Notes under the pieces: model-generated | Seen by the model: only the letters and a program-made list of their open reading frames with translations | The model's database searches: none | What the model was told of the DNA's origin: nothing | Assembly (NCBI GenBank): GCA_040954595.2 | Contig: CM082577.2 | Span: forward strand, 16,127,903-16,191,902 | Reading direction: 5' to 3' | From: Balanoglossus misakiensis | Lineage: Eukaryota > Animalia > Hemichordata | Length of the DNA stretch: 64,000 nucleotides | Position numbers and translations under genes: made by a program | In this document: positions 6,988 to 60,300 of the stretch, one piece after another | How the letters are laid out: each line of letters starts with the position of its first letter | How positions within the stretch are numbered: the first letter of the stretch is position 1

Positions 6988-7119
6988 GGTTATCGTCCCA
7001 TATCACCTCTTGTTGGGCCATATTTGCCGCTCGTGTGGGTTGTGAGCTCGTGTGATGCGGCTCACAACCCACACTCGCGGCAAATATGGCCCAACAAGAG
7101 GTGATATAGGGCGATAACC
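6988..7119. repeat. Long imperfect palindrome (60-bp arms), hairpin H1
   Basis: 6988-7047 pairs with 7060-7119. The TC/TC mismatch on the + strand is GA/GA on the - strand. Confidence 0.95.
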
Positions 7120-7122
7120 GAT

Positions 7123-8246
7123 TTATCATATGCTCAAACCTCGGAATTTACAAGAAAAATGAAAAAATAAAACAAGAACATTTTAATTTTTATGAATTAT
7201 TTTACTCCGCCTAGCGCATTGATATTTTAATAAAATTGTAAATCGGCTTCATTCATGATGATGTTGACGTGACATGACCCGCCATTTTAAAGTGTAGCGA
7301 TAGCATACGGTTATGTAAAAGTATGAGGATAACTGTTAAGATGTAAAATAATGGTAGGAAACGACAACATCGGTAAGTCAAAGATGTTTTAGAATAGTAA
7401 ATTGTTCAAGGACCGCTCTGCATCATGCAAAACAACACATTCTGAAAATTGAACTTGAATCGGTGCAACAACAACAACGAACAAGTGAACGTCATCAACA
7501 TTGCGATGAAATTCAAAATCGGTATGAAATTAGTTAAATTGCAAATAAAGCCAGAGGCCTTTTATTTCAAAGTTCAAGAGTCTCAAAGTCTGCTCATTTT
7601 TTGTGAATTTTCTGATGAGCACGGAGAGTCATATCTGACTGCACGACGGCGTCGTTTGTACGGTGGCGGGGGCTGTGTCATGGAGGATGATCCCATCGAC
7701 GTCGCATTGGAAACGTACAGATATTGAACGAACCGCCATATATCACTGCGTCGCTAAATATACCAACCCTTGTCGCCGTTTCCATCTGACACGTACTTGA
7801 ACTGGTCGAACCAGATTTCACATGTGAAATTGCCCGATTTTCGACGTGTTTGGATGAAGATTGGGCGAGGGTGTTTGACATCTCTTCCTGCTGTCTGAGC
7901 GAGGCGGTATTTTTTAAAGGTGTAACTGACAATCGTGTTTTTTTCTAAATCAATCACACAAGATAAATCTTTTATTTATAACAAATGTCCGAGGCCATCA
8001 GAACCCCATGACTTTCGATGTTGACTACCGGCGCGGTATATCAAATCTCATGAAACCGGGCCCTGTATCAGGTTATATTTGTTTACATTTAAGGTCGCGA
8101 TTTTCATAAACATAGTTCCGGGTATCAGCGCAAGAAATGATGAAGTTTAGTATGAAATATCACCGGGTGATATTTCACACTAAACGTGATGATATTCACG
8201 TTAAACGTCACTAGGAGGAGGTGATATCAGCATGAGCATATGATAA
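7123..8246 (-). mobile_element. Second, internally deleted Crypton-like module abutting hairpin H1
   Basis: Bounded by TTATCATATGCTCA / TGAGCATATGATAA. The minus-strand remnant ASLRQQEEMSNTL...GIFSDAVIYGGSFNI...YKRRRRAVRYD parallels the C-terminal tail of the YR at 5291-5676. Confidence 0.65.
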
Positions 8247-8500
8247 CATGTAAAATTCAAGTTTATAACATGTAGGGTTAACATTTATTACATATGCAGC
8301 TAGCTGATAACGTTTATTACATGTAGAATTAAAGTTTATTACATATTGGGTTAATTGTTATTACATATTGGGTTAGTATTACATATTGGGTTAAGGTTAT
8401 TACATATTGGGTTAGTATTACATATTGGGTTAAGGTTATTACATATTGGGTTAGTATTACATATTGGGTTAATTATTACATATTGGGGTGATACAACAGT
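8247..8500. repeat. Tandem 18-21 bp repeats (TATTACATATTGGGTTA), likely subterminal repeats of the DNA transposon the Crypton inserted into
   Basis: About 8 near-perfect units plus degenerate ones. A reverse-complement-like unit (CTATGTAATAAA) lies at 4741, on the other side of the Crypton. Confidence 0.75.
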
Positions 8501-10942
8501 GCCCTTTAAGCCACACATTTATGTGGCCTTTATACATGCACGGCTTGGAGCTAGTGATTTTTTCAAATCTGACAGTTATGCAAGGGAAGTTTAGAAATGT
8601 ATTTGATCCAGTACATTTTTCATACATGTCGTTCACAATTATGCTTACATAATTTACCAGTACCGGTAACATAATTTTACTACAGGTCGAAATAACATAA
8701 CGTTAAGCTTATATGATATTAAACTATATATAGTTTGTGCTGCTTTATATCACAAGTTACCGCTCCATCTCTTTAGTCTTTGGTGTTTATTAATCTTCCA
8801 CAGAGCAAAATGACCAGAAGTGGTTGACTTCATATGCATTTATATAAATCTAGTTTGTGCTACTTCATATCACGTGTTACTGCTTATTACCACGGGAAAA
8901 TCCATGGATACTAATGGACGCTATTACTCCTGATACAATGTTTAATCATTGCAAGGAGACATTTTCCTTAAAAAAGATACGAAATTGAACATGTTAGGCA
9001 TTTGTATAGGTTATTGTGACAAAAGTAATGTACGCAGTTTTGCTGAGTACTTTGACATATGCATGAGTTTAGTATAAATCAATACATGCTCGTAATACCG
9101 CATGTTATAATCATAAATAAACCATGTAACAAGGTATACGCAATGTTAATCAACACAAACATGTGTCGTTACATTCTATTATCTAGTTGATATGTTATGG
9201 AATAAAACGTACACCAAAACGTTTATTGAAATTTCGCCAAAGAGCTCACTTTTGTACGGTTGACATGTTATACAATAGTTTTGCTGCTGTATTCGAGTTT
9301 GTTCAATGATGGTTTGGTTTGAATCAATATCTTTCAATCTTTAACCTCTCTAACTGAATATTTATGGGAGATACGAGAGTGCCGAAACAGAGTATGTGTG
9401 GTAGAGATATTTATACGCATTTTTCCCCTCGCGGCCATCCAATGAAAGTCTGTATATGGGCTAAATCTCAACTTTCCATGGTAACTGAATTTTTCTGGGT
9501 AACTATGACCTAAATACAGTAAGGAAATGTTTCGTTAGAAGTTTATGGCGGAATTGTAAAGTGCGCCTTGCGGTCCGTGCTGAATTCGGTACTTCACCGA
9601 TTGACCCAGATAATCACCGCCAATATATGAAAATGTCAACCGCCAATCGACTTATCAGCATTTTAAATCACGCGGAAAGCAAAACACAGCAATAAATTCC
9701 GGCAGCCGACGTGGACAGAGGGGTCTCAATCTATATCCTAGGCTGGCAATGTATAGCAGATACAATAAACATGTACGTCAACATGTCTTTTGAAGTACCA
9801 GGTCGCCTACCACTGACCTGACATACCTGACCTTTTTCCTTTTCAGTGTGACCCGCAATGATTGCGAAATTCGCGTTTTATGCAAGTTAGACCAAACACC
9901 GACAACTGAAGGGGTGACGATTCCCAAAGTAGTTGTCGGCTCTGTATGTATCGCTCCGGCTGATCGACGAGACTAGTCGGTCAAAGTGTTGTCAGCATTG
10001 AAGCGGTTCGGAAGAACATTCACATCCGGAAGACACTTGTCGGAAAGGCCGCCGGGCCAGACGATGGAAGAGGGGATGGTATTTCTGCATGACCACGTAC
10101 GAACAGAGAAGGCGCAGGAACGGGTGTCAGAACACATGTATTTGTGGACGTGGAATGCCACTACATTGACGCCGAACACAACAAACAAAACCACAACTAT
10201 TAACACAAAACGAAATAAAAGAAGGTGTCTTGTCTACAACTACTAAAACAACCACTCTGAACACAAAGCCGAGTCCGATCCCCGTCGTCGAGAATTTGAA
10301 TACAACGATGACTGCCCTGGCTGTGGTTCTATTCGTAGGTGGCGTACTTGGCTACATCTTAGCTTGGTTGACATCTTAGCTTGGTACGTTGAACTGTGGC
10401 TCTGAGCATATTCGCCCATTACGCAATACGCCACTTTCATCGAAGAAACCTGGCACGGTCATTTCATATAAGCAAAGCGATGGGCAAAGTGGTGGTTTTA
10501 AACAAACCGACAGCACATGCACACGACGAGAGATTATGTATGATCAAGAAATCCTTGAAGAAGATCTCATCCAGATCAACACCTGTTGTGGCAGTAGCGG
10601 TAGGGTGGGGTTGGTGAAGGTGAAGTTGAAGATGAAGATCGGACGTACAGTACAAAAAATGCTGGGCCCAAGGTCCACATACTGCCAGAGGTCGCATATT
10701 TTGCCATAGAAGTGAAACGAACGAAAAAAGAGTAAGGAAGGAAGGAAGGACGGAAGGAAGGAAGGACGAATTTGACCTATAAAAATTCCCTCATGAAAAT
10801 CAATAAACACGGGAGGGTCCCTCCACTGCATTGCCAAATGGACCGACACAACTGTCACAGGCACATCACAGAACAGCCACAGGCAATCGATATCTGATAT
10901 AATAATTAACATGGACCGAACAACTCCCCCTTTCAATCACCT

Positions 10943-11444: not shown

Positions 11445-14400
11445 ATGAACAAAAAGACAGTGCTGTTTGCTGTCGTTTTACTGCTGATCGTCAGTTGTGC
11501 GGATGGCTTTTGGGGGCGACGCCGCAGACGGAGGTGTAGCGCAACCAACTGCCAAGTGAGTGGGTGGAGCTCGTGGCGTTCGTGCTCGACCCCTTGCGGC
11601 AACAGCGGAACACAGACTCGTACCCGCACGGTGACCAGGGCAGCTTCGTGCGGAGGATCGTGCAATTATCAACTCACGGATAGTCGATCGTGCAACCGAC
11701 CAGGCTGCAACAACCACGGCACGCCTTTGTCATCCTCGTGCTCTTGTTACGCAGGGTGGACGGGTACCTGCTGCGGATCAGGTTCGCCATTCTGTGTTGT
11801 CTTGGGAACAAGAGTGTGTTCTTGTTATTGCAGTTTAATTACAGATGTCTGACATGTTATGTTTGCGGACGTCAACTTCAGCAGACCTGGGCTACCGTCA
11901 CACCCCTTGTAGCAAACAAAACATACTTGAACAAGTTAAAATTTCAATAGCACTTCAAGTAAAAGTAAGCGACGCATGTCATTTGCAACAGTCGTATTTG
12001 TTGTTTATCGGACAGAAAAAATGCTAAGGCAACTATAGAAACCCAAAACATGCCCATGCGACACGCTATTTTGGACACTATCAAACGTTGTTGAAAATTG
12101 AAGGATAAACAACATGCATTATTCATTGCATACTTTATGCATCCCTGAGTAATTGGTGCATATTTCGCATTAAAATACAACTTGCTCAAAGGCTACATAC
12201 GTACATGCAGTCACCACTTCAGAATGGGGCATAACATGGGTTTCATTGATTCAGTTCATTTCGCGGGAACTTTGACACTCGAAAACATTCTTTATTCCAC
12301 AGACGCTAACGAATGTAGTCACACCAATGGCAATTGTGCCACAACACGTACGGAAGTTATTACTGTACATGCGGCACTGGCTACACTCTGAATACTAACG
12401 GAAGAACATGTAATGGTGAGTTTTCAAGAAAAGTTCGCTGTATGTATGCTATACGCCGTCAAAATATACAGCGGAGAATATTTACCAATAGTGTTTTATC
12501 CAGAATGGCCTTTTGAATGACATCACCCATGTGGTCTGTTAATCTCAATAGCTATACATTCTGAAAGTTTAGTTTGCAGAAGATATTTTGAGAAGAAATG
12601 ACCCGGTGGGAGTAATCACGTGACCCTGATTCTCTTGTTTTTAATTCAGATATAAATGAATGCCAGACAAGCAACGGAGGTTGTAATCAAGTTTGTACAA
12701 ACACTGTGGGAAGTTACATCTGCAATTGCAACACCGGTTACCAATTGGGTACAGATGCCCATACATGTTCTGGTAAGATGTCGGTCTTGCTATTCATGAG
12801 ATAAACGTCCGCTGTGAGCTTATATTACTAGATTTAATATGGCAGTGGCGTGACATCTGTATGTCTCTCGCGGTTAAAAAATACTCAAATCTCGTTTAAG
12901 TATGTTTCTGAAAACAATACAATAATACCAGTCGGTAAACTGTCTGGATACATACAACTTTTTACAACAGGTAATGCCTTAGGAGCCACCATTGGGAGTA
13001 TAGCGCTGTGACTTCAGACATTTTTTGAATACTGTATCTGTGAATAACTTTTAAAACCTTTCAGATTATAATGAATGCTCTACTAATAATGGCGGATGTA
13101 ACCACGTGTGTACGAACAGTGTCGGAAGTTATAGTTGTTCTTGTAACGTCGGATATCACCTTACTTCTGACAACCATCAGTGCGTCGGTGAGTAAATTAT
13201 TGAGTGAGTGGGTGAGTCAGTCAGTCAGTCAGTGAAAGAAGTAAGCAAGGAGAGGTTGGTTGGTTGGTTTCTTGGTTGGTTAGGTGGATATGTCGGTGGG
13301 AAGGAGGGATAATGTGATGGTAGATGGCTATATAGATGGCTTTTGTTCTTTACTATAATAGATACTGACGAGTGTTCTACAAACAATGGCGGTTGTAATC
13401 ACTTCTGTACCAATTCTATTGGAAGCTTCCAGTGTTCCTGTAGGAATGGCTACAACTTGGGCGCTGATGGACTCACCTGCACAGGTTCAGTATCAGAATT
13501 GTAAAATGTCATGTAAAACAACCCAAACTTTTCATACAACGATGCAATCTATAGAACCACTCCCAACATCATCGATTGAGGCAATAACTTTGCTTATACT
13601 TTCACTTGGTTGAAATTAATACATGTATCTTGTCCACAAGTGCACGACTCTCGCGTAGGAATGCTTGTTCAAACCATAGACAGTCTATGTTCAAACGGTC
13701 ACAAAAAGCTAAAGGGGAGGGTCATCCGCCCATGTAAATGCCATCCACGCCTTATCCACTTGTCAACCATTTTACTTTCTTTTCTATCACCCAGACATTG
13801 ATGAATGCTCCCAGGGAACTCACGACTGCGCACAAGTCTGCATAAACGAGCCGGGTACCTGGGCATGTGCATGTAACAGTGGTTACAGGGTTCACGGGTG
13901 TCACTCGAACTTATGCACAGGTAACTGCCACGCCTGTTTGCTTTTTAAGCGTTTATTTATTGTTTACTTGCCTTTAAAGGCCACACAGCTTGAACTTCGT
14001 ATGTCGAGGGCTACCATCTCTGCAGAGATTTACGTGCGAATACGCCTATTAAATTTACGCTATTTTTTCCTGTCATGTGCGATTACCTAGCCGTACGGTT
14101 GTTTTTTATCATTTCTAAGATATAAGTGAATGTGATGAAGTGTCTTCTGGATGTAATCAGATCTGCACAAACACCATTGGGAGTTACCGATGCTCTTGCG
14201 TCGCTGGCTATGAACTCTCAACTGATAACCATACATGCATCGGTGAGTACCTTAAACAGAAATCTGGTACATTGTATTCCATTGTTCGCTGTGAATGTCG
14301 TGGGTTTTGCAGTCTTCAGAAACGGCGATTTTACAACACTGCTATCATCCACATGTATTCCGACGCTTTGCTCGTCATCAACACAATGTATATGTGGCAC

Positions 14401-16739
14401 TGAACAGATTTGCATATAAAGCAAACCGGGTCTTTCACCACAAGAAACTTTATCTCCTGTGAGTGACAACACTTTCATTTATCCTTCAATGCAGATATTG
14501 ACGAGTGCCAGAACAATGGTTGCGATGGTTGTGTTAACGTCGACGGGGGCTTTGCTTGTCTATGCAACGACGGATTCACCCCGAACGCCGACAGAAGTGC
14601 CTGTTTAGGTGCGTACACGTACCAAGATCATTCTAAGAGACTTCACCCTACTTTCAATATTACTAAGAAACATGCGAGAAAAATATCCCCGAATGAAGAC
14701 GTCCGATGAATAGTCTTGTTCGGAAGGGAGTGATTTAACTGCAGTATTGAGTTAATTATCATCTAAAAATGGAAACTGATGACATCTATGGCATTGAATG
14801 AAAACGTACTAGGTCCATACGACTCGGGCAGTAAGAACAACTTTCTACTATATCGTAACATAAAAATGTATTGTGCCATCAAAATCACTCTATAGCGAAA
14901 ATACCAGTAACTTTTGACCCTGTTCACATGTTAACAATTATATTGAACTTCCAGACATCGATGAATGTAGCACTAACAACGGTGGGTGTGACCACACTTG
15001 TACAAACTCCGACGGCGGCTTTTCATGCGCATGTAACACAGGATATGTTTCTGACGACAATGGTTTCACCTGTACAGGTAAATCATAATGTTAAAATTCA
15101 CCATATGGTCTTTGACAAACTTGCCGAAGTTGATCGTCTCGAATTTGATGTAACATAATCTTACAGTGTATGCCACTAAAATGAACGTACGGGACATCAA
15201 AACTGAAACATTACGGACCTATTACAACAAAACATTTATGTCTATATGATGTTTCTCTACAGACATTAACGAATGTGACGTCAACAACGGTGGATGTGAG
15301 CATATCTGCACAAACCTTCCCGGCAATTTTGCGTGTTCCTGCCAAGCGACTTATGACTTGGATTCGAATGGTCGCACCTGCTCAGGTATGCAAATTTTCT
15401 GTTTATTCACTCCATTAACTTAACATAACAATTCAGCAAATGTACGACTTGTACGCAAAAAGCGGCGAACATAACCGTAAAATGACACTGTACGTTAAAG
15501 CCCCAGTATTTCTCGTGTGTATCCATTTTTCATCATCGAAAAATGCCCGTTTTTCCCGTACATTCATCATGGAATACATAATGAAGATAGAAGAAAGGTT
15601 CGGGCAACTGTAGCTACGTGCAAGCTGTAAATATTGCCCGTAACACTTGAAATGATGCGTGGGTTTGTTTACAACGGAAATGTTGTACATGTCGATCAGC
15701 AAACGTGCCACTTTGACATTTGATCGTCAGACCATTTTCGGATTTGATCTGGTTCCATCGACTGATTTCTCCCATAATGTTATCTTCCCAAAATTTCGCC
15801 GAATTAGTGCGCATTTCTTCGCTGAGTCGCTTGATTTGGGGCGACCAAACCTCTTCCGCATAGAATCACATTTGAGTGCGCATGCGCACTAGTCACGTGT
15901 GTCAACAGAGCCTGACTTTCTGTCCGGACAGAAAGTCATTCTTCACTCGTTATATTGTAAATTGTATGAGTTTATGAGCAGAGCTGGGGATGATGACTGT
16001 TCGATTCAGTATCAATTATCATCTACTTTTAGAAATTATAGATGCCGTTTCAAACAAAATTTTGCCCCTACGAGAAATACTGAGGCTTTAAACGATTGTG
16101 TTCATTGAACTTATGGTTATAACTAAAGAAGGTACCGGTACAACCGAGCACAAAAACGTGCAGTATACTTGGGGATTCTCCTTGTATAGGGGTCATGGGT
16201 GTATATTTATATGACTTATATATATCAACCAACAGATATTGACGCCTGTCTGAACTCCAAATGCGATCAGACTTGCGACACGGTCAGTAATAATGCAGTA
16301 TGTTCCTGTACAGCGGGATACGAGTTATCACCAAATAATAAAGCTTGTCACGGTAAGTCATTTTATCTGTTGACAAGATTATCATAAAATCTCCACTAAA
16401 ACTACTCTTCATGAGACTAGTCCAAATAATAATGTTACTTGTCAATCAATTTTGTAAGAGTCATATATATTTACGTTGCAAACTAACTAACACAATCGAT
16501 GCATCAGTAATCAGTCAAACAAACAAACAAACATTGAGTCGCGTAGTTTAAAGCTAAATAAGTATTTTAACCGAGCTACATATCTTATTTATGACCTTTT
16601 AGATATTGATGAATGCAAAGATGGTATAGACGGATGTTCCCAAAATTGTGTGAACAACGATGGCGGTTTCTCCTGTACCTGCCGTACAGGCTACCATTTG
16701 GATCAGGATGGAAAGACATGCGTGTCTGATAATGCTTAA
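11445..16739 (+). CDS. Secreted protein: signal peptide, poly-Arg, TSP1, EGF and 11 calcium-binding EGF domains; this copy has a frameshift in the first cbEGF exon
   Basis: Coding exons with GT-AG, all phase 1: 11445-11781, 12303-12415 (113 nt), 12650-12772, 13065-13187, 13362-13484, 13795-13920, 14120-14242, 14495-14608, 14955-15077, 15263-15385, 16236-16352 and 16603-16739 (TAA). The EGF exons start D-x-(D/N/S)-(E/A)-C. The TSP1 motif is [12 protein letters not shown]...RTRTV. Confidence 0.9.
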
Positions 16740-20347: not shown

Positions 20348-21334
20348 CTACTGAAAGGCCAAAGCTCTAAAGGCAGAACGCAAAAGTCCTTCGGGCGTTC
20401 TAATATATCTACGGTAACAGTCACTAGACCACCTGCCAAGAGTCTGAATAAGGTGGTCTGGGAGATGGGCACTGGCTGCTGAAGTGGCTGCACCGATGCG
20501 GAAAGAGTGGCCGGCGAAGTGTTGAGGATGCAGGCCCAAGCGCGACAACAGCAAGCGGAGACTAGATGTGAAGGTTGAACGGTCGAGTGCCACTCTTTCA
20601 GGTAACAGGAAAAACGGCTCCGTTGGGGTTGTAAGCATCTGTTGGCGAACTTCATAAAATCCTGCGAGCGTCGCCACTGGGCACACAGATGTATATGTTG
20701 GAAATAACCGAAGGTGGAATCCTTTCCGGTACTGATCGGTTTTCGATGACTTAATGTGAATGACCACGCATTCTGGAGAGCCTTGTCCTTGGGTGATCTT
20801 GATGTCGTTAACGGTCAGGTGGAATTTTGGATTGAAAACCCGAGTGCTGCATGTAAATTCACTGCAACGGAGGAAACCATAGAAGGCAAGCAGGAAGGCA
20901 GATTCCAGCAGTAAATCGACGTATGGACCAAAGATCCCCTGACGTAGTAGCACACATAAGCGTTGTAGAATGTCTAGCGTGATCGGGAGTCGCGGACGTG
21001 ATGCTTGACCTTGGAGTCGCAGTATTCCCCTGAGGACCAGATGAAGGTGAGGGTGAAATTGTCCTTGCTGTGACACCAAAGGGTTGTTGAGACCGGCACG
21101 CACGTAATGATTCCGGATTGCAGCCAAGTAGGTGCGAAGAGTGGTGTATTTAAGGTGACAGTTCGTAGCACAGTGAACCACAAAGTAGATGAGAAAGTCC
21201 TCTGACGCTGGTGGGTATTTTGGTGACTGACCTCTGATGTTGAACAAAGCCGTGAAACGAAGCCACGCACGAACCCCTGTGCTGTAAGTCGAAACTGTTC
21301 TTGGGCTGAGTGATGCCGACTGGAAGGTTGCCAA
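20348..21334 (-). CDS. Ngaro tyrosine recombinase, intact
   Basis: 328-aa ORF with GFLRCSEF, KSSKTDQ, GHSFRIGAAT and LGRWSSDCYRRY (R-K-HxxR-W-Y catalytic set). Confidence 0.95.
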   Translation of the reverse strand: MATFQSASLSPRTVSTYSTGVRAWLRFTALFNIRGQSPKYPPASEDFLIYFVVHCATNCHLKYTTLRTYLAAIRNHYVRAGLNNPLVSQQGQFHPHLHLVLRGILRLQGQASRPRLPITLDILQRLCVLLRQGIFGPYVDLLLESAFLLAFYGFLRCSEFTCSTRVFNPKFHLTVNDIKITQGQGSPECVVIHIKSSKTDQYRKGFHLRLFPTYTSVCPVATLAGFYEVRQQMLTTPTEPFFLLPERVALDRSTFTSSLRLLLSRLGLHPQHFAGHSFRIGAATSAASAHLPDHLIQTLGRWSSDCYRRYIRTPEGLLRSAFRALAFQ

Positions 21335-21342
21335 AGCTTCGT

Positions 21343-24368: not shown

Positions 24369-24690
24369 AATGCGTTGCGTTGAAGGGTTGAATAAAGTTG
24401 AGATAAACGAGACAAAGAAAAAATGCAGAGAGAGAATAGCTGGGTTGTCGCACTGACGCGGACAAAGACGCTAACTGAGGAGATTGAGAGAGCAATTAGA
24501 GGATAAGACAAAGGATATGCAAATGAGTAGAGGGGGGACGCCAGGTGACGAGTGCAAAAGAAGGGGGAAGGAAAGACAAAGGAAGAAGAGATAGGGAAGG
24601 CAGGGGAGCCATAAGGGGAAGGCTTCATACATTTACAAACCCAATCTGTGATATCACAGATTGTTATACTGCACAGTGCACTGATTTGAC

Positions 24691-33262: not shown

Positions 33263-35311
33263 ATGGCGAGTTCAAGTTCGTTTAGCGTCGCGTCTCCCAT
33301 TTTTGGACCTTCGCCTCCACTGTTAAAGAAAGTCAGAGAAAGCGTCAGCTCGACTTCGATACTAGTACTGGGAAGTCAAAGAAAACCAAAAAAGAAGCAC
33401 TACAACAAAGAACGAAAGGTAATATATTGTTAATTAATGTGCACCGCTGTCAGCCGCTACTCGGTTCACGTTAACCGTAGGCGATTAGTTTGTTTTGTGT
33501 GTTAACTGTGAGGTCATCCCCGCCCACTTGTATGTAAATAGGACAATTGACACTCATTATCTGAGGTCAAGATGATTTATGTTGTTTAGCCGAACTCCGC
33601 AAATATTATTCCGCAAATGTTATTTGGTTGTATTATCAAAAAGCGTCGTGTAAAACATATACGAAATATACGTTTAAATTAGCCCCAACATTATCAGGAA
33701 AATATAGCAGTAAAGCAATTATTTGGTTTCTTCATAAACTTTCTAACACTTTAACAATTGAATCTCGACACAGACAATGCTGATAGACTTATTCACCACC
33801 ACAACAAACACCCTGGCCCTAGTAAACCGACCAGCAGTGGTATCGTAACCAACAACAACAACAGCAACAGCATGAACAACAACAACAGCATCAACAATAA
33901 CAACAACACAAGCAAAATGAATGATATATTAAAGATTGTAAAGAATATCCAATCAAAAATGGACAAAGTCCTGGAGGAGCAAGAAAAAATAAAGGCGGCT
34001 GTTCACAAGCTCTCAAGACAACAGAGTCAGCATTTTGAAATAAGAAAGGGATCTTACGAATACGTAAGTAATTCAATGTAATAACACAGATATATTAACG
34101 TGTTTAATAATTTTATCAACTTATTTACACATATATGTATGTTTATAATTATATTTATTTATAATATTTGTGTGTTTGTTTGCTTGTATGCATATTATAA
34201 TTAAATAATAACACATGATAGCGAGGGCAATATCACGATTTGAAGCCTGCACGAGGGATGGTGATCTCTGACTACAATATTGATGATGCCCGAGCCGCAG
34301 GCGAGGGTATCATCAATATTGTGGTCAGAGATCACCAGCCCGAGGGCAGGCTTCAAATCGTGATGTTGCCCGAGCATCATGTGTTATTAATTTTATTACG
34401 CCGAACATTTGAACGTACATGTACATACAAGGCAGGCATAGAAGAACGTAGACGCGCGTCCATATGTCGTACGTTGCTGAGAATGTAAAATGTCTCGATC
34501 TCCCAAGAATTATACGATACCTACTTCGAACTTAGATTATTTGGAAAATACTGCACTGTTGGTTGCGATTTTGTTGTATTTACTGTCCGTTTGTGGTAAA
34601 ATATCGTCCAGTTGAACAGGTGTTAAGCCTATGTGTCGCTTTGAAGCCATAGATGCGGGAGTTGACTGATCGTGGAGGAAGCCATTGAACGACAGTTTGG
34701 AACGCGCAGAAGTCGCGCGCAGAACACAAAACAACCCAGCGGGCAATATCAGCGCATGCGACAGGGCTTTATCAACTCTAGCCATGTTATATCACTTTTT
34801 TTTCTATATCACGTGAGCGCGTCTCAGCCAATCACGAATATGGTATAATACGTGAGGTGTAATAAATTTATTTCAAACATTTTGCGTGTGCATTTATCAA
34901 CAGAACCCCCTGGTCCAACTATTAGCAGGACTGTATTTCAACAATCCGTCAAGGGAGGTTCCCAGACAAGACATTTATGTAAGTCTGTACATAGATCTAC
35001 ACAAAATTTCCAGTTTCACCACAACAAATAAATCAAAATAACAAAACATGTTACATAATCAACTTGAACTATTTATAATTTCTCAAGATGCCATCAATGA
35101 TCCATTCCTTTCTTTATGCAAGTTTTCCTTGTATTCATAAAATGAAAAAGGTCAAAAACTGATTTTATCACATCACAAACAAATATATCATGAGTATTTA
35201 CAGGAAGAAGTGCAGAACAACTTTGAGGGATATAATGGGAATGCTGTCCAAAAAATGATGAAATTTGCTACGTTAAAAATACAAGAATGGAAGCAGGAAG
35301 AAGTGAGAAAG
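33263..35311 (+). pseudogene. Multi-exon gene fragment of unknown function, possibly the accessory gene of the downstream CACTA-like element
   Basis: ATG at 33263 (MASSSSFSVASP..., with an apparent frameshift). Exon-like blocks with GT donors end near 33418, 34063, 34978 and 35311. Contains Asn-rich and coiled-coil segments. Confidence 0.4.
34207..34866 (+). mobile_element. Non-autonomous Crypton-like element: ~180-bp hairpin (H2) plus a module bounded by short inverted repeats
   Basis: Hairpin 34207-34388, then TTTATTACGCC...GGTGTAATAAA. Same layout as 4813-7128. A matching module end also occurs near 41295-41310. Confidence 0.7.
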
Positions 35312-40500: not shown

Positions 40501-43500
40501 CCGTAATTACCCCACTTACGTCCTGACTGCATGCTCACGTATATAAACTATATAATGTCACACTGCATGACATGGTTTTTCATAAGACATTTGTTTTATG
40601 AACAAGATATGAATTGATAAATTGTTACACAATGGTCATGCACATACCATTCATTCTTTGGAGAGAAAAAAAAATATTTCAGGATAAATTCGGTTTATGG
40701 ATTCTCCTGATTTGACAACTTGGATTCTCCTGATTCGACAGGTTTTTGTAATAGTAGGTTTATAATAAGGTTACTGTTTCTCATCTTTCTAGGTTTTTAC
40801 CATTGTTCACTCTGACAAATACAATCAGTCAGATGCTGAGAACTTAAAAGCAACTGTCAGTTCTCTGTTGACCAAACTGAAGCAGACCTTCCCAGAAGTC
40901 ATGAGAAAACCAAAGATACACATGTTATCACACCTTGTTGAAGATCTTCATATGTTTGGACCATGCGACTGTTATGACACTGAAAGGTACAGTAGACACA
41001 TGTACATGTATAAACAGCATTCAGGTAGCGTCCCGTGTCGTTGCATGCAGTAAAAGTCTCGATCTCTGGAGAACTGTAGCTGTAGGCCTACTTTAAACTC
41101 AGATAATATTGGACAACTGATATTGTGCTGTTGATGCGCAGAATGTAAAAACTGTTCCCAGTGGTCCACATCCACATTCTGTGCGCCGTATCCCCTACAT
41201 AGGGCCATAGACTCTGCCAGCCATGTAATATCACATTGTTATTTTTTCTATGTCACATGATACGGTCTCAACCAATCAAGAGTACGGAACACAGTGTGAG
41301 GTGTAATAATAAAGTGTGATGTCGGTAAACTTCTATACAATTACCAAAATTTGTATTTATTTCATACCTACTATCAATTGTTCTAGTGTGTGCCAAATTG
41401 GCGTAAGGGATTATCCTTGATACATCACTATTAGTGGGAAGAAGTGTTGGTTATGGTTCCTATGATTTAATAAATGAAGTCATCTTTTAACTCTAATTTG
41501 TTTCACAAATACAGGTGTGAGACATTTATGGGTCTTGTCAGACTAAAATACATATTCTCCAACCACCACCATCCATCAAGGGACCTTGCACTATCCTTTG
41601 GCAGACTGCAGCAGTTGCGCTTTATCCTCAGTGGAGGGATTTGGAAAGATGGTCATAATTATAGGTATGTAGTGACAAAAAATACATTGTACACTAACAT
41701 TTATTATTTACATATTTTTGGAAATATGATGATACTGGGGTCTGTTTCCCATTGTCACCTTGTTTTGATTGTGGCCAAGAGTCTTTTTTTCCTATGACAT
41801 GAGCTCAGTTCCAAATTCGAAACTCACTCACTACCACAAGCACGCCCGAAGCAAGCATGCACACAAAAAGTATTGAGATTCCAAAAATCACCAAGAGACT
41901 AGTGTGCTAGCCTAATACAGGACCATCACTTTGTTACTTTGGTTCATTATACTATGAGGTTATTACGAAAATACTGCAAAGTATGCATGAGGACGTTAGC
42001 ACAGGGTATCGCCCGACGCGTAGCAGAGATGCGCTGCGCTATTGTCCGAGTTCATACTTTGCTGTATTTTCGTAATAACCTCATAGTATAATGTTTGTTA
42101 TGTAGATATGTCTTTAGGGGCATTCCATACATAGACACTTCTGATCTATTGAACGGCTTGATTTTAGGAGGTGTGGCCCCGCCGTAAAGGAAATGTACAA
42201 AAGTGATGTAACTCAAAATTTCCTTAATGGTAAGAGGAAATGCGCACTTCTTGGACCTGTTTTGAAGAAGGTTAGTTGAGGTCATATTGAACAAATCATT
42301 TGTCAGAAGTTACAGTTACCATATCCTTGATGCTTTATGCAGGGTATTTAATTTACAGGGAATGAATTGTATTTTGTAATTTGTCTTTGAGATTTAAAAA
42401 TACAGTACGGCATTAATAATTTATTTACAACAACAACTAAACATAAATCGACATTTTGTCACATATCAAAGAGATGTATCATTTACATGGTTTTATCCTG
42501 TTTTTTTAGTTGACAGAAACAGGGCTTTTTGAAAATGAAAGCAGAATACTGAAAAGGTAAGATAGGTATACTTATGTCTACATAGGGGTTTCAATTCAAC
42601 AACTGGCATGCACACATTCACATGAGTATGTACAATTCATTGACAGTCTTGCTAACTGTCATCAGTGTCATGGAATAAAATGGCCTTTCTTGTCATAGTC
42701 ATTCACCCAAGGTCATGGGAAGTGGCATCAGTGCAATCAGATCTTTCTTCGATTGACTACTTAGCATACTGCTTGATGTGCTGCAATCAAAATAAAAACT
42801 GGAACAAAGTTCTACCCTTTTTTTGTGTGGGAGGGGGGGGGGGGGGAGGGAGAGGCAGATTTTATTATATCGTGAATTTTTTTCATTTAAGTATTTCAAA
42901 TCCCAACTAGTGGTTCTTACACTTATAATATGTGGTCTGGGTACTCGTGTCATTCACATTATTCAAGGACATGGACTATGTAAAGAATAATGAGGTCTTA
43001 ATCAAATGTACGATTACAGCAATAAGATGTTATCTGTTCCATCACAGGAGTCCAGGATTATGGAATAAATCCAGTGACAATGGTGACACTGAAATGCTAT
43101 TCTACAAGGCAGTCGACACGACAAAGGGGATCATCAATGCTGGCGCATACTTGGCATATTATAACACAGATGGACAGGTGATCATCATATTGATGTGATG
43201 ATGTGTGGGGTGTCTACCTTCTCAAATTTGTTAGTTGTTGCCAAAGAGTTTGATAGGGAAATCTGATTTCACCAGCAATTTATACCTCGAATTAACCTTT
43301 TCGCCAGTGGTTTTGTCTTTCCCCAAACTTTTTAGTAAAGTTTACCTCAAAATAGAGCATTGACCATACTTTGACTGATGAATTTTTTTACTTGACTCAA
43401 TAGTAGGGGTAGGTTATCTCGCTATTCTCCATGGGAAGAGTCACAGGCGCACAGTTTACCAGTTGACGTTCAGTGCTAGCATCCTTAATAAAAAAAACAC

Positions 43501-46380: not shown

Positions 46381-46403
46381 TATCATCAGCATCCACTGCG
46401 TCA

Positions 46404-48480: not shown

Positions 48481-48573
48481 GTGTTATTAAATGTTAGGGT
48501 TCAAACTTGGCTATATATACTGTTCATTTTAGACATTAAAGTAGAGGCCACATTTGACATCCCAACGAAGTAC

Positions 48574-51500
48574 TAGTCAGGTGGAGATTTGAGAAATTGT
48601 GACCCCCTCTGGCATTTTTTGGTACAAGCAAACCAAATATGTTTTTTGGTCAATTCGACTACGCTGATTTCGAAAATGCCTGTTCCCAAAAGATCTTTTT
48701 GAGATAAGAGCCTCGTTTTGGCAAATCAAATATGGCCGCCAAGGATCGCAATTCTCACATGAATAGCATCAAAGAAATGTTCACGTACCTCCTTAAATAA
48801 TGAAACTAAACTACATGTTTACATCAACAACTTTTTTTGGTTGTATAAACACAAAATAGCAACAATAAAACAATAATTATGCAAAAATTTGCATATTATA
48901 TGAATAATTCGTTGATTTTTGGCTACCAAATGATAATAAAGCTAGGTGTAACAGTACATGTACTGAAAACTCACAAGCATTGGAAAAAATTACCTTTTCT
49001 TTATTTTAATAAAGGACTTAAACCTTGTTCAAAACAATACTTCAAGTGTGAAGTTCATTTTGAGATAAGAGCCTCGATGTGGCAATTCAATATGGCCGTC
49101 TAAAGCCCTGTAGTGGAGCGGCCAAACCCTAATTTTCATAGTGATTGTGCATTTTGTGATAAAAGCACCAAACTTGGCTCAGATGTGTGTTAATGTGTAC
49201 TAAACAAATTCAGATAGGGAGCCACTAAATATATGTTGATGAGTTTCCATGGCAACCAATTTTTCAAAATGGCCACCAATACAGATAATTTCACCCACCA
49301 AATAACATCTGTAAACACCAAGATAAATTTAGATTACTATATTTGATACAAGGAACTGTGGAAAGAATAATTTACAAAGATATTATGGTTACTAAACTAC
49401 TTATAGGGGTAAGTAAGTTATCAAAACACAATCTAAAGGCACAACTTTTAATCCCTTTCGGATTAATAGGTGCTCCTCTTGAAGTCAAACCATACTGTCT
49501 ATGGTCAAACATTAGGCTAATTGCGATATTTAACTTGCAGTGCGTAAATTACACATATGAATCACAACAGTTTACCACCTTAGCTAATGATAATCATATA
49601 AACAGATCACCGATATATTCGAATTGCACACGGATGTGGGCTTGGCTTACTCGTGACTGGTAAAATTTCCTTATCAACTTAATAGGAGAGTCCACTGCCT
49701 GAAATAGACGTTGATCCAAACTGAGTCCGCGGTCGTCACGTTTATTGGTCGACAGACATGTCTTGATACTTTAGATCATGTATCAGTTCCACTCCAGCAA
49801 TTTTGGCGACTGTTAACAGAGTTGACCAAAAGATAAATGGTGTATATGATTCCAAACTCATAAAAATTACACCGGAGGACACAACATTATTTTATTTGTC
49901 GAGAATAGTGTCCATCATGCCATAAATATTGTCAAAAATGTGTGTTAATTATAGAAACCCAACTAAATATACAAGCAGTTGGCCTTTAGATTGGTAAATG
50001 GAAAAACAGGTCTTATTGCAATTTTCTGGGATTAGGTGCCCCAAGGCTCCCAACAAGTCACTTGGAATGTACTTCCATTCTAATATCTCAATGTGTAAAG
50101 ATGTGACTTTGCAAGAGATATTACGGAAAACTTCATTTCATTTAATAGCATGAAGTAAGCGAAATCTTACTCTTTACAGAAAAGCTGTGATCCTGAAGAC
50201 TTTTGGTGTTTTGAAGCTTATTTTCACTTTATCATTTTATTCTTTGATTTTGGGGGTTCAAAAATACACAAAATAACATGTCAAAAAAGAACTGCTGACT
50301 ATCATCAAGGTGCGATTAAAATTATCGATAACATGAGCAATACAAAGCACTTCAAGCGACTTCATCAAAACGCTTTCCGAAGGACAAGTATTGGATGAAA
50401 AGTTTGAAACAGATTTTGATTTTGATTCCTAACATCTATCTATGTACACGCACCCTAGACATAGTTTGTTTCTATAGTAACTTTAACAAACCAATCGACT
50501 GTCATGATACTGGCTTTCTGCCACCATTTTATGGGGAAGTGATTCTTTATTTGCATGAATCATTTGATGAAGATAAAATAGAAAAGCTGGATTCTGCACT
50601 GATTCAAACTGGTCAGATCAATTTATAAGGTTGAGAAACAAGATGCCGTTTTTTTCCTGGGTTCACTAAATGTGGAATTTTGTTCATCAAAGATATTTTT
50701 ATGGGGAAAATAACGAATCAACTGAGCTTTACTTGTTAAACTTTTATCACAAAATGCCGAAATGTTACGAAAATTGTGTTTATGCCAGGCCACTATTATA
50801 ATATATATATATGGTTATACAGTGTTTTAACTAAGTTTGTTGTATCCGGGGTTATTACCAAACTTGAATTTCTTTAGCGACTGAATCTCGATCCTGTATT
50901 TACCCCTATAACTAGTTTAGTGATGATATATATTTTGAAAATTACTCTTTGAGCAGTTTCTTGTTTCAAATATTGTAATATGAATTTATTGTGGTGTTTT
51001 ATAATTGTTATTTTGTGGGTGAGATTATCTGTATTGGCGGCCATTTTGAAAAAATGAAAAAAAATGGTTGCCATGGAAACTCATCAACAGATATTGTGGC
51101 TCGCTATCTGAATTTGTTTAGTACACATTAACGCACATCTGAGCCAAGTATGACACCCAAGTGGATTAAACATACATATATATATGTTGCCTCACTGACA
51201 CAATCTTCACTTTGCACACAGTATCATATATAAAAACGTAATAAAAATACACATTACTCTTTACTTATGAAGATAAATTGTTGTTAGAGACCGGGTTTCA
51301 AAAAAACACCGAGGACGTCGGGCCATCAGTGTGCATTCAACGTCTTATAACTAAGCATGAATATACGGTGCTGGCATAATGTAAGTGTGGCCATACGATG
51401 CTTTCGCTATTAATGAACAACTTGTACGTTAACAAATGCCAGTTTTGTTTGCAAAAAGTATGTTTTTGGCTTTTCACAACATTGAACATACATTCATAGT

Positions 51501-53035
51501 TCAATAACTTGTGAATTGTGGACCTAAACGTTCATACGTTCAATGTTCTGGTGTTTTTTAACGGAGCGATCGGTCACGATGTTACCAACGAGCATGTACA
51601 GTCTAAACTAAATCCTCGTTGTGTATGTTTATTTGTTTGTTTTTGTTGTTTTTACATGCTATTACATACAAATATGAAAAGTTTCATTTCAGTTATTCAT
51701 TAAAATGCAAACATTTGCCAAAAACATGTGAATAGACACCTCACTGGCCATAGTCGTATCATTAGCTTTCAATTGTCAATTTTAGCATGACATCATGAGT
51801 AATTAAGCTAATTTTGCATATTTTCCATGCTGCACCTTGTCTGACAAGGTAATCGATTGCATATTTGAATTCCTTGACCCTGAAAACATTGGAATAGACA
51901 CCTCACTTAACACTGTTGGCTCTCTTTTGTAGACCATTGATTTTAGATGGGTGTGTCACCTAATTAACATAAATTAGCATTTTTACCAATTCACCAAACG
52001 TTTCTAAATTTAAAAAAATGCTTAAAAATATTTAAATGAATATAAGAATATGATTTCAATAGACTATTATGGTGTTGACCTGTGATATTGCACCATAATG
52101 GCTACAAACAGCGTTTTCTTTTAGGTATTTTGAAATTATGACGTCACAAATTAATTTGCCATTTTCGACATGAAAACGTGAAAAGAATTTTTGGGAACAG
52201 GCAAATTCGAAATCAGCGTATTCTAAATATCCAAAAACAACTTGTTCCCAGCTTGTACCAAAAAAATGAATGACATGCTTTTAAAATGCTCATTTTCTGA
52301 AATTTCCACCTGGACCTAATTAACATAAATTAGCATTTTACCAATTCACAAAATGTTTCTAAATTAAAAAAAATTGTTTAAAAATATTTAAATGAATATA
52401 AGAATATGATTTCAATAGACTATTATGGTGTTTACCTGTGATATTGCACCATAATGGCTACAAACAGCGTTTTCTTTTATTCTTTTAGGTATTTTGAAAT
52501 TATGACGTCACAAATTAATTTGCCATTTTCGACATGAAAACGTGAAAAGAATTTTTGGGAACAGGCAAATTCGAAATCAGCGTATTCGAAATATCCAAAA
52601 ACAACTTGTTCCCAGCTTGTACCAAAAAAAATGAATGACATGCTTTTAAAATGCTCATTTTCTGAAATTTCCACCTGGACCTAATTAACATAAATTAGCA
52701 TTTTACCAATTCACAAAATGTTTCTAAATTAAAAAAACTGTTTTAAAATATTTAAATGATTATAAGAATATGATTTCAATAGACTATTATGGTGTTGACC
52801 TGTGATATTGCACCATAATGGCTACAAACAGCATTTTCTTTTAGGTATTTTGAAATTATGACGTCACAAATTAATTTGCCATTTTCGACATGAAAACGTG
52901 AAAAGAATTTTTGGGAACAGGCAAATTCGAAATCAGCGTATTCGAAATATCCAAAAACAACTTGTTCCCAGCTTGTACCAAAAAATGCCTGACATGCTTT
53001 TAAAATGCTCATTTTCTGAAATTTCCACCTGACTA
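48574..53035. mobile_element. Non-autonomous Academ-like element, copy 2, with a 3-bp TSD
   Basis: TAC|TAGTCAGGTGG...CCACCTGACTA|TAC. Lacks 187 bp present in copy 1 (27338-27524). Confidence 0.9.
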
Positions 53036-55159
53036 TACTGGCCATCCCGTCTCTCTCTTCATTCCAAACCTTTTCCCAAGTGTACGCCGTACATTAGGTG
53101 GCAAGTGTGACACATAAAGAAGTTGACAACAATAACAAAGTAGATGAAACTTCAAGAAAAAAGAGAGAGAAGATCAAAGAAAGGCAACAATTCAGAGAGA
53201 CAATGTCTTAAAATACAAAGTATGGCAGACAGTAGCTTCTTTGATGTGAGGTAAGGTGGAAGATATCACAAAGTTAGTGAATTTACCCTCTTGTAAATAT
53301 GATCCCTGTGAAGTTCAACACGTCTTCAACTTTGAAAATTCAATAACTCAGGAAACTGTTTATTTATCAGCATAATTTCAATAAAAAGTTAAAAATTATT
53401 GATGCTGTATTAATAGTGATTTGCTCCCTTTTTTCGGTTATGATAAACCTCATGAAGAAATTCCAGTGTCTATGTCTGATGACAGTTACAGTGACACAGA
53501 TGACTCTCACAGACATAATTCACAACATACAGGTTATCATGACAGAAATATACCTGGTCTGTAAATGAAAAAAACATGTAGAACTAGCACGGTAATTCAC
53601 TACACAAAAATAGCTACACAATTGGCAGATAAACAATAACAAATTTCTCTTCCATTGCAGTTCTGTAATCATAGATGGAACTTACATGCCATGTCAGGCT
53701 AACACAGCAACACTTGGCACATATGATGACATCATTGCAAAACTACCAATTGAAGTTGCATACAGAAAACGTCGTAATGCCATATAACAGAAATAAGGTA
53801 ACATGAAATTATGAAAACCATATGCTTTATATTTAAATGAACACCTGTATCGTATTTCCATTACCAACCAGTCTATAGATACAAATGAAAATAGCGTCAA
53901 GGACACCGTGGTCCCATTTGAGGATTATGAGGAAACAGTGACACACCATAATAAAAATTGCAGGTGACATTGCAAGCAGATATGATCTTACCATATAGAA
54001 ATATGGAATGTAAAAAAATTAACAAGGAATATGCCCAATAAACTGTCATATGTCATGGCAGTCTTACAAGTGGTGCTAATAAAAAATTGACCAAAAATTG
54101 TCTGTACAAACACATATGAGAAGCAACTTCTGTCAGTCAGCCCTGGAACAGACACACAGACAGACAGACACACACACACTGACCTGCCACTGGTTATTAA
54201 ACATTTAATAGCTGGTGGTCTCTGTAACAGCTGGCCTATTAAAGTTATGTAAACATGTTTTAGTTTCGGGGTAAAAACTCCTTGTAAATAGTAACTTTAA
54301 AAACAACTGGACAATTGGTTTATAAGAAGATTTGCTCACCAAAAACAAAGAAACTTACAAAAAAAACTCGCTAAATATTGAATATTTCTGATATCAGAAT
54401 TGAATAAAAGTTGCACATATACATGTATGTGTTAAGAAATTCTATCCTACATTTCAAAGCAATCAGAGAAAAAAACAAATTTCAAAGCAATCCAACAGGC
54501 AGTTTCACAGAAAATATTTGTTCAAAAGTGGCAAAAACTCAAATATGCAAATATCACCAAAATTGTACAATATCACCGCGTGAAATGTTCCGTAAGGAGA
54601 TTGCATGACGTGGAAAGTTCAAGCAGTAATGTGCAAAATTTAGTTTGTGAAATTTTGAGAGAGTCAAAAGTATTTTCTGTGCATAAAATGCAGGAATTTT
54701 TGATCTGAGTGCAATTCCAAAATATGTTATGTGTTTGTTCACATTGGCGGAGATTCATATTCAGGTCTAGAAAATTTCTTTTTATAAAATCACACACAGA
54801 CACACACACACACCACATCACATTTACCATTCTGTGTTCAAATTTACATCCAAGAAATCATTTGTAAGTTAATTGACTGAAAAGTCCATGAACAATTTTA
54901 TTTACAAGTTAAATAATTCCAAGAGATATTTACAATTAATGTGAAGTCATCAAAATAGTCATTGAAAAAGTCTTTAAAATCAGATGTCATGTAAACTTGA
55001 AACCAGATAACTAGAATTACACGGTTTGCATTCTCCAAGCCCAGTAAAATGTAGACAATGAATATGAACTCTTGAAGTAAAATAGCCAAGCAAAGGTTAC
55101 AGTACTGCAAACTCCCTCATTAGATACACAGTAAGTGATTAAAATAGCACCAGGTTCAT

Positions 55160-58506: not shown

Positions 58507-58730
58507 GACAAAAAGTCATTCGAGGAATTTTGCTCATCGATTTTCCTTCCGTGTGCGGGCGATTTTTCCTGATCTTTTTACTTTTGCGCCGCGGATCACG
58601 ATATTCAACGTGTTTCATATTTTTTTTCCTCGCAAGGAAAATTACTCACCGTGTGCGCCGAACAAAGTAATTTTACTTACGTATCTAGCCTAATTGCGCA
58701 TGCGCTGGCATCACTTGACGACGATATAAG

Positions 58731-58913
58731 ATGGCCGCCTCCACTGAAAGTGAGCATTGTAACTACATAAACGAAGCCGTCCTTGAAGACAAGTTGGTAG
58801 AACTATGGGCAGAGTTTCCGGTCCTCTTTAACGTAACATCGCCCGACCGTGACAAAAAGGAGCATGCGCTCCAAGAAATTGGAGGGCAACTTGAAAAAAC
58901 AGGTAAGAGTTAA
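58731..58913 (+). pseudogene. MADF/Myb-SANT DNA-binding domain exon, Harbinger ORF2-like
   Basis: EDKLVELWAEFPVLFNVTS..RDKKEHALQEIG followed by a GTAAG donor. The upstream sequence matches 63903-64000, which follows a Harbinger-like terminus (TTTA|AGGCTGCCGCACAC). Confidence 0.6.
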
Positions 58914-59858
58914 AACTTTACGTGACAATACATTTCCATTAATGTGCAACAAAATAACAACTCTCTACTGACATTGTTACAATAAATGTAACTTGTACGT
59001 TCAAACACGTGGCGTACACAAAGCACCAGTGAATGAATGCCGTTAACGGTCTACTCCAGACGTCCTGCAATTGTCTGCCTGTTTCTTAATGGCATATTAC
59101 GTGAATAAATTACAAGCTCGACACGTGCCGGTTTCGGGATATAAATTGCACATCGATTCATACAACCTTAAAAACTGGTATTTCCTACACTTTCATGCAT
59201 GCAATTTATTAAGTTCTTTGACAACAAGAAGTACTTGCTTCTTTAAAAAAACACGCAGATACAACAAATCAGTGATCTCGGACAAGTCCAGCAACAAATA
59301 CAGCAACAAACCCAAACCACAACAGGTTATGTACAGTCAGTCAATGTCATCTTTAACTACCACTGTAAAAAATAATACCACATGTCCCTCCTACCGCCAC
59401 ACTTATCAGATGCAACACATGCAAAATGAAGCTAACTACCTCCAGTCTATTACCATATATGGTACTTAAACTGCTGTTGAGTAGCTCAGAACTAAAGTTT
59501 CATGTTCCTCATTCAGTTGTTCAAGATTTTCTCGACCGTTCTGAAAAAAAACACCTGATCACCGATCCAGATGCCACAGAGGATTATTTCCTCACAATTG
59601 GATCACCTCTTACACTGCAACATGACAATAGTCATGTAGAATACATATAATCAATCAGACAACTACCTCGACCACATCAGATCCACCTGAACAAAATCAA
59701 TCATGTCCAAAACCAAAAGAAGAGTAAAAACCCTATTTATCCAGAGAATAGTCCAGGATGGTATACCCAAAATTGCACCTGCAAGTCAACCATGTGCTTT
59801 GTCTACGGAGGATGAAAGCAAACTAGCCTGTGTATGATACGTGAGGTGAAATAATATG

Positions 59859-60300
59859 AGGTTATTACGAAAATACCGCAAAGTATGCATGAGGACATTA
59901 GCGCCAAGTATCGCCTGACGCGCAGCGGAGGGCGATGCGCTGCGCTAATGTCCGAGTGCATACTTTGCGGTATTTTCGTAATAACCTTATTATTATACAT
60001 CTTACATCTCCGTTAGTTCTTGTGTTGCATGTTACTTGGCCCAAAATGCCGATACAATCGATCGAAAACCGCTCAGTTGACTCAGTGAGCAGCCATCTTT
60101 GTTTTTTGTTTACGTGTGCGCACGTGCGTTGGAGTGGGGGCGCCTTGAAAACGTCCGCATAACAACGCATACCTGTACACGGTGAGTTGGGGCGCCTTGA
60201 AACCTAAAACTTATTTAACGCGCGTTCCGTACGTACCGTTCCGTACGGCTTTTTATTGCACGCCAAAATCTATTGTTCTCGGCACTAGATGTATAATAAT
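59859..60300 (+). mobile_element. Non-autonomous Crypton-like element: hairpin H4 plus a module with a 14-bp inverted repeat
   Basis: Hairpin 59859-59987, then ATTATTATACATCT...AGATGTATAATAAT. Confidence 0.7.

Follow-up and report, generated by a model that had tools for sequence, protein, structure and literature searches.

A 64,000-nucleotide stretch of the hemichordate Balanoglossus misakiensis (GenBank assembly GCA_040954595.2, contig CM082577.2, positions 16,127,903 to 16,191,902 of the forward strand), called the window below, contains four long hairpins, H1 to H4. Judged by sequence, these hairpins are one end of CryptonA transposons, whose gene encodes a tyrosine recombinase (YR), or of short derivatives whose ends are laid out alike. 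Their arms carry tandem mismatches in which GA faces GA (GA/GA), and their tips carry GNA triloops; both lie on the same strand, the GA strand. This structural code, carried by the ends of transposons of a known class, is real and well supported; the mechanism proposed for it, in which the YR would act on the folded GA strand, is new and testable. An earlier note on this DNA, made from its letters only, had suggested that Crypton-linked hairpins have a non-random, strand-fixed GA/GA and GNA design, and this view passed all the sequence tests run.

All four hairpins were found where the earlier note had placed them, and they are the longest in the window, a satellite array at ~44.3-44.6 kb excepted. 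The fold of H2 has a z of about -20 against shuffled sequences. H2 contains three GA/GA and a GCC-GCA-GGC apex, and H4 contains two GA/GA and a CGC-GCA-GCG apex, as first described (C-GCA-G tip in both). For H3, one of the two GA/GA described was called by script; the second, which adjoins the GTA loop, was seen by eye only, in a short stem with one mismatched pair. H3 and H4 are 87% alike across 140 nt and form a single family, in agreement with the three unrelated stem families first described. A strict tip motif occurs twice in the window, against one hit summed over 20 Markov resamples. The Rfam scan of the window gave no match.

The description of H1 had to be changed. Ten loci of the H1 family were fetched from two genomes, each of which has at least 12 matches. 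Family copies read CAC-GA-GTC-GAA-GAC-GA-GTG at the apex, not the reconstructed GAGCC-GCA-GGCTC, and their GA strand is the window plus strand, as in H2-H4, not the minus strand that codes for the YR. The tip region is kept in 9/10 loci and an intact C-GAA-G loop in 7/10. Window H1 differs from the inverted family hairpin by 2 mismatches and one 21-nt gap, and from the un-inverted one by 7 mismatches and two gaps. The window copy is the inverted family hairpin minus 21 nt, and the supposed TCGTGTG insert was rejected. Locus L089 was flipped and deleted independently of window H1; in L091 and L092 the outer GA/GA was corrected to a perfect pair. By sequence comparison, the H1 family follows the same code and polarity as H2-H4 despite the flipped window copy. 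Three H1-family matches lie 1332 bp apart (B1:C8:16556746, 16558078, 16559410) and may form a head-to-tail array.

The YR gene beside H1 is of the CryptonA class by its sequence, with a DUF3504-type YR as the sole gene found. PF12012 was identified in the protein (E=2e-19), and Pfam on residues 1-312 gave DUF3504 and QRICH1 only. Full-length relatives list only DUF3504, QRICH1, and PF00589. The 2.2-kb element contains one long open reading frame (ORF), without GCR1_C or another C-terminal domain and without a reverse transcriptase (RT). A 15-bp inverted repeat (IR) pair brackets the gene. The nearest named relatives are from Ptychodera flava (68%); a search of viral contigs gave no YR relative. 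The window copy has one stop at 5725-5727 and a frameshift further on, and copy L001 is open for 450 aa. L001 (98%, at another site) and L002 (78%, from another genus) have different flanks, and the element is dispersed. Both copies stop at the base equivalent to 6982; H1, which had been taken as part of the YR element, belongs to another element inserted exactly at its end. L001 carries GA/GA and a C-GTA-G tip at the far end of the element, 3' of the gene, on the template strand. In the window, the tip and 5' arm of this hairpin are gone, and another repeat (4501-4741) occupies their place. From the shared layout, IR ends, and target word, the CryptonA YR is a candidate enzyme for moving the H1-H4 elements.

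The code was also found in other Crypton families. A metagenome search gave 289 YR relatives; of these, the 80 best loci were retained and oriented with the YR on the plus strand, and they form 33 DNA families at 80% identity. Under a fixed rule, hairpins within 1.3 kb of the YR match were read on the strand where the hairpin precedes the gene. Ungrouped, the 36 hairpins of this set contain 48 tandem GA/GA and 4 of the complementary TC/TC. The long terminal type accounts for 21 of them, in 10 families; the recombinases of these families and of the window are 30-72% identical as protein. With 15 host-side hairpins, the terminal set reaches 36 hairpins in 14 families, including the partial hairpins of L089 and L090. 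The split into terminal and control hairpins was made after the data had been seen, hence the ungrouped counts above. The terminal hairpins contain 70 GA/GA against 4 TC/TC, all four in two flipped copies. GA/GA makes up 61/85 strict 2x2 loops, and the context is Y-GA-R in 136/140 half-sites. Tips are GNA in 22 cases and TNC in one, and C:G closes 20/22 GNA. The 15 other palindromes near the gene, used as controls, have no GA/GA and one TC/TC among 21 2x2 loops. A scan of 272 kb gave 16 strict tip motifs (four in a separate short repeat, one in another element), against 0-1 across five Markov resamples. Of the YR loci, 27 extend 1.3 kb or more downstream; the hairpin is present in 14 of these, decayed or partial in 3, and unjudgeable in 1.

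The earlier note had proposed to look for enrichment on one strand in a fixed orientation to the YR gene. The enrichment is seen; the fixed orientation is not. The hairpin is downstream of the YR in 8 of the 10 metagenome families and upstream in 2, so the polarity follows the element, not the gene. A fixed relation of the GA strand to the YR coding strand was likewise rejected, as it is the template strand in 8 families and the coding strand in 2. Read from sequence, the fixed relation is to element polarity: GA has the same polarity in every one of the 14 families, and none has switched. No formal p is given for 14/14 because the families share ancestry. Three copies are flipped (window H1, L089, L053), four are arm-corrected (L040, L073, L091, L092), and CpG decay strikes CGA sites in copies, as in the H2 contigs. 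Template switching homogenises arms and inverts spacers (PMC8604942). Flips, arm corrections, and CpG decay should randomise or erase the code, yet the polarity is kept; the GA/GA and GNA code is therefore likely to be kept by selection. Compensatory stem changes, also looked for, are present; they are weak evidence for folding, because arm-to-arm template switching yields them without selection. Short palindromes without the code lie up to ~260 nt upstream of the YR match in L010, L016, L032, L040, L073, and L079, and likewise in the H1 element. Several stand beside a CCAAT word and might be duplex binding sites for self-regulation.

The elements share one order on the GA strand: host ATAH, a 7-nt spacer, the hairpin, a 5-nt spacer, the inner inverted repeat (IR-L), the body, the terminal inverted repeat (IR-R) ending in ATAA, and host. 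The 7/5 spacer pattern is clear in H1, H2, and H4, and probable in two coral-type families. The IR pairs are 10-30 bp long, with one repeat terminal and its partner behind the hairpin; the families L005 and L009/L019 have no established pair. An identical left 7-nt spacer is found in 11/11 H1-family copies (9 independent sites), in H3, and in H4. The four letters before the H1-family left spacer vary (ATAA in 3/9 independent sites), and the letters preceding the left spacer are A (10/12 sites), T (11/12), and A (11/12). Inner motifs were used to locate right ends, and these finish in ATAA in all listed cases except two. None of 27 distinct right flanks exactly repeats a known donor spacer, which is available for only some of the families compared, and one flank matches 6 of 7 letters. 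In the target half-site past the cut, T is found at position 8 in 19/27 flanks (p=2e-4) and A at position 9 in 15/27 (p=2e-3), before correction for 14 positions. This profile counts duplicates sharing flanks once, and excludes the AT-repeat-targeting L029 family (5 ends), L046 and L051 (lacking an ATAA end), L031 (truncated), and L080 (junction). The pattern reads as a probable two-armed duplex target, with one strand cut and no spacer homology.

When the ends were joined in silico, IR-R paired with IR-L, which lengthened the stem by 10-15 bp and left a small bulge at the cut. L080 (2540-4321) is a natural circular permutation, with IR-L, gene, IR-R, and then the hairpin 5' arm up to the tip. 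An end-to-hairpin junction of this type, here between two elements, is also present at 6982/6983, where the YR element meets the H1 element. The one-sided scars, the ends, and the junction folds fit the single-strand folded step that had been suggested for these hairpins. H2 was followed in contigs from two runs of one sample: depth edges are sharp, with loose ends at 34201 and 34865 and many different flanks. An empty-site joint skips the 665 bp with four shared letters, ATAA; no target-site duplication beyond the short shared word was seen at this empty site, which represents one element only. The ends of the H4 element are inferred from the IR pair of one copy, and H3 is the only second copy. 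Neither IR-L nor body was found for H3, which is likely a template-switch product. Contigs over 3500-9500 and H2 gave no end-to-start joint; short contigs through palindromes are no evidence of absence, and they cannot count hairpin flips.

These features suggest that the YR likely uses one folded strand, the GA strand, as its substrate, similar to the attC sites of integrons. We lean slightly towards this mechanism, and the enzymatic steps that we infer are as follows. The GA strand would become single-stranded at a replication fork or in a cruciform. Sheared G·A pairs and the C-GNA-G tip would let it fold nearly like a perfect stem, while the duplex would stay an imperfect palindrome. The YR would cut only the GA strand, after the 4-nt ATAH/ATAA at both ends, and close a circle. 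In the circle, IR-R would pair with IR-L and lengthen the stem, with ~2 unpaired bases at the cut. The folded junction might then recombine with a double-stranded target ATAH-N7-TA, spacer homology not being required, and replication would complete the insertion. The G·A stem is 10-80 bp away from the cut, so strand selection probably depends on its folding and not on contact with the catalytic site. C:G-closed d(GNA) loops are unusually stable (PMC3201870). More broadly, animal CryptonA might be self-mobilising attC-like cassettes. A Cre-like YR would read a folded strand marked by sheared G·A and a GNA tip, exchange one strand without spacer homology, and stack elements end-to-hairpin into arrays. 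This broader proposal is tentative, with a chance somewhat below even.

Several observations weigh against the folded-strand mechanism. The circle junction, ATAA-N7-TTAT, already resembles a normal duplex YR core when unfolded. The outer GA/GA seems to be dispensable, having been lost in both L091 and L092, at two sites. No such hairpin was found at 9/27 YR loci with the required downstream sequence, and the GNA tip is absent on the GA strand of the L016/L032 family. Because of common descent, the families are not independent draws. The cut position is not placeable in several coral-type families, and at the L080 junction the spacer is 5 letters long instead of 7, in an AT-repeat context. ViennaRNA DNA energies favour the GA strand in 19/36 hairpins (mean -0.06 kcal/mol), which is no strand bias. 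The strand advantage therefore rests on general knowledge of sheared G·A pairs, which give extra stability in the Y-GA-R context. The tip is not unique to Cryptons, since repeats like the bacterial repetitive extragenic palindromes (REPs) share it. The structure model of a YR relative (P0004; mean pLDDT 76.9) has the YR fold and is closest to Cre (Z 21.2, root-mean-square deviation (rmsd) 3.2, 304 aligned), ahead of IntI4 (Z 15.8, rmsd 4.4, 271 aligned). There is therefore no integron kinship. XerC/D also handle folded substrates (PMC5027507), so a non-IntI enzyme does not exclude an attC-like route.

One-strand copy-out on duplex ends might account for the one-sided scars equally well. The YR would act on a duplex ATAA-N7-TTAT core, and the hairpin would be a later single-strand origin, or a protective fold, for the second circle strand. 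A precedent is given by the bacterial SEs (strand-biased circularizing elements), which form strand-biased circles using YRs, from one strand and with a 6-bp spacer from one end (PMC9345347). The Cre-like enzyme model and the distance between the G·A stem and the cut agree with copy-out. The occurrence of the same tip elsewhere points the same way: a viral contig matches it exactly over 23 bases, and a small plasmid has a weak match close to its genes for replication and mobilisation (E=7, not significant). However, copy-out leaves unexplained why IR-L is 5 nt behind the hairpin, where it is placed to pair with IR-R only in a folded circle. An H2 empty site also exists, though it may be a pre-insertion allele. 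SEs have four core genes (intA, CDS2, intB, CDS4) including two YRs, whereas a single gene is found here, and no folded terminal hairpin is described for them in the part of the source covered (PMC9345347). Copy-out is the main rival, though rather unlikely.

Classical two-strand excision of a duplex circle is the standard Crypton model (Goodwin, cited by Kojima and Jurka, PMC3212892). The palindrome would then be a duplex or cruciform binding site, and its mismatches would only stabilise it in the genome. The Cre-like fold of the P0004 model and the 4-nt ATAA common to the H2 ends are in line with this model. It also predicts host letters at the right ends and loss of the fixed left spacer, and neither was seen. 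Moreover, any mismatch would stabilise a palindrome, yet the 2x2 loops are mostly GA/GA on one strand. Two-strand excision is distinctly unlikely.

It is very unlikely that the hairpin acts in RNA, or that a Helitron/Helentron HUH enzyme, instead of the YR, reads it in trans. Tandem G·A pairs are stable in RNA too, the IR pair and outer stem-loop are like those of Helentron derivatives, and the window has a Pif1-like helicase fragment. Helentrons and HINEs have an HUH Rep/helicase as autonomous partner, whereas elements with the layout seen here carry a YR, and the same layout flanks YR genes in metagenome loci. The GA strand is antisense to the YR in 8 of 10 families, the window has no Rfam match, and C-GNA-G triloops are a DNA motif (PMC3201870). 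Least probable is an origin without function, in which mutation or assembly produced the pattern as a by-product and a single ancestor passed it on; the strand-code and tip-motif counts largely refute it. The families are related and template switching does reshape hairpins by flips and corrections, but it erases or flips GA/GA and does not create it, code and polarity persist between stems that cannot be aligned, CGA sites are lost to CpG decay in copies, and control palindromes lack the code.

The elements were compared with known systems. Published CryptonA (PMC3212892; the fungal Glomhopper, PMC13465315) are similar in having a DUF3504-type YR as the sole gene found, many copies, far commoner short derivatives, and target sites without true duplication. 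The hosts listed for Cryptons include hemichordates and cnidarians, and animal Cryptons are described without terminal repeats, with excision as a DNA circle cited (PMC3212892). Crypton ends are called variable or poorly conserved in the Glomhopper paper (PMC13465315). In contrast, the present elements show one-sided scars and combine an IR pair of 10-30 bp with an outer hairpin of 100-190 nt whose code is fixed to one strand. The IR pairs, as identified by sequence, depart from the 2011 description without terminal repeats and revise that description, not the enzyme family. The words 'hairpin' and 'palindrom' have no occurrence in the main text of either paper (PMC3212892, PMC13465315), and Eulor5/6 are filed as Cryptons with no mention of palindromes in the part of the source covered (PMC5753468). 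The literature covered, which leaves supplements, Repbase, Dfam, and most subscription papers outside its scope, describes neither these hairpins nor a single-strand Crypton route. Palindromes may be recorded in Repbase or Dfam Crypton consensuses.

Integron integrases use folded single-strand attC sites (PMC5027507). Like the present elements, attC cassettes end on one side in an imperfect hairpin, which mostly lies 3' of the gene, and unpaired features mark one strand. Their outer arm is likewise complete only in the circle, the crossover word is short and shared, and insertion occurs beside the ends of other elements (PMC5027507). An unpaired spacer at the core is common to both, with 7/5 spacers in H1, H2, and H4. 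However, the enzyme here is carried on the element, is Cre-like, and belongs to the DUF3504 family, not IntI. The word is ATAA/ATAH instead of AAC, and RYYYAAC/GTTRRRY boxes are not seen. The strand mark is sheared G·A plus GNA, not extrahelical G/T, and no attI platform was seen.

The H2 tip 19-mer has ~1200 occurrences in GTDB genomes, and 42/146 distinct matches follow GTCAT. The CGTC/TGTC-tagged bacterial REPs share the tip, often behind GTCAT; they have a GTC tag and a short 8-9-bp stem (PMC3733652), whereas the H2 stem is ~90 bp without such a tag. None of 153 bacterial and viral tip matches has a stem extended as in H2, and descent of the hairpins from bacterial REPs was rejected. The bacterial tip is likely a convergent use of a stable single-strand tip. 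Its presence in bacterial and viral DNA thus supports a general single-strand design and lowers specificity. No YR link was seen for the REP-like repeats, and none was tested. The coral-type tip occurs in a viral contig (L094:1490-1535), upstream of an ORF that is terminase-like by eye, and weakly in the small plasmid (L093:1495-1535), between the replication and mobilisation genes. The plasmid locus may be a primosome assembly site; its resemblance to the tip is not significant. The part of PMC5778457 covered describes only the phiX174 site. In L123:2038-2325, a GIY-YIG-like ORF (motif match only) adjoins a GTCAT-tagged repeat with the H2 tip.

In the literature covered, Crypton movement has not been shown, and animal members are published without terminal repeats. 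The analysis supplies an intact natural enzyme (L001), defined element ends, and a target word, and it predicts both the cut site and the active strand, which makes the movement question testable at the bench. If the folded-strand mechanism is true, folded single-strand recombination by YRs, known for bacterial IntI and XerCD, would extend to animals. It would bear on the origin of the Crypton-derived DUF3504 proteins ZMYM2/3/4, QRICH1, KCTD1, and KIAA1958, and would offer a compact integrase with relaxed target needs.

Table 1. Crypton-related features of the window (coordinates in the window).
Feature	Position	Strand	Details
3' arm remnant of the YR element's own terminal hairpin	4748..4813	+	L001 matches from 4748 and runs left into GA/GA and C-GTA-G tip
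IR-L, inner inverted repeat of YR element	4814..4828	+	15-bp pair with 6968-6982
CryptonA tyrosine recombinase gene	5292..6642	-	DUF3504 and QRICH1 domain; catalytic residues R, H-x-x-R, H, and Y all present
IR-R, terminal inverted repeat and end of YR element; H1 element starts there	6968..6982	+	L001/L002 end at the same base, with other flanks
H1 element, non-autonomous, 1264 bp	6983..8246	+	spacer 6983-6989 (7 nt), hairpin 6988-7119, IR-L 7123-7135, IR-R 8234-8246
H1 hairpin, inverted, 21-nt deletion of GA/GA and C-GAA-G tip	6988..7119	+	comparison with family copies
Short internal palindrome of H1 element, without GA code	8137..8193	.	hairpin survey
H2 element, high-copy, non-autonomous, 665 bp	34201..34865	+	spacer 34201-34207, hairpin 34207-34388, IR-L 34393-34402, IR-R 34856-34865
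Isolated right end of H2-like element	41219..41309	+	75% across 91 nt
H3, hairpin of H4 family	41953..42093	+	spacer present; 3' foot complementary to left flank
23-nt match to H2 element right end, directly before H4	59832..59854	+	E=0.003, weak
H4 element, 445 bp	59855..60299	+	spacer 59855-59861, hairpin 59859-59987, IR-L 59990-60002, IR-R 60287-60299

Other features were also observed in the window. Three long ORFs at 20348-24470 (-) are by eye gag-like, RT/RNase H-like, and tyrosine-recombinase-like, with no Pfam hit at E 0.001. Together with the split direct repeats at 19410-19654/24423-24667 and 19031-19330/19655-19954, they likely represent a DIRS/Ngaro-type retroelement. Broken ORFs at 439-2621 (-) resemble by eye a Polinton-type family B DNA polymerase; the one piece tested had no Pfam hit. 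A DEAD/RecQ-like helicase fragment (PF00270) lies at 2455-3189 (-). The Pif1-like helicase fragment at 30872-31936 (+) is Helitron-like, with weak Pfam hits. A segment of ~4.5 kb is duplicated at ~26150-30800 and 48570-53050; it contains inverted arms internally as well as tandem units of 354 bp. At 12645-15315, a host gene has repeated exons coding for EGF-like sequence. In the metagenome loci, a different repeat (L049:2310-2400 and 5210-5240, L080:1070-1100) starts with TTATT or TAATT and contains a mini-hairpin GA-GC-GNA-GC-GA, possibly from another Crypton group.

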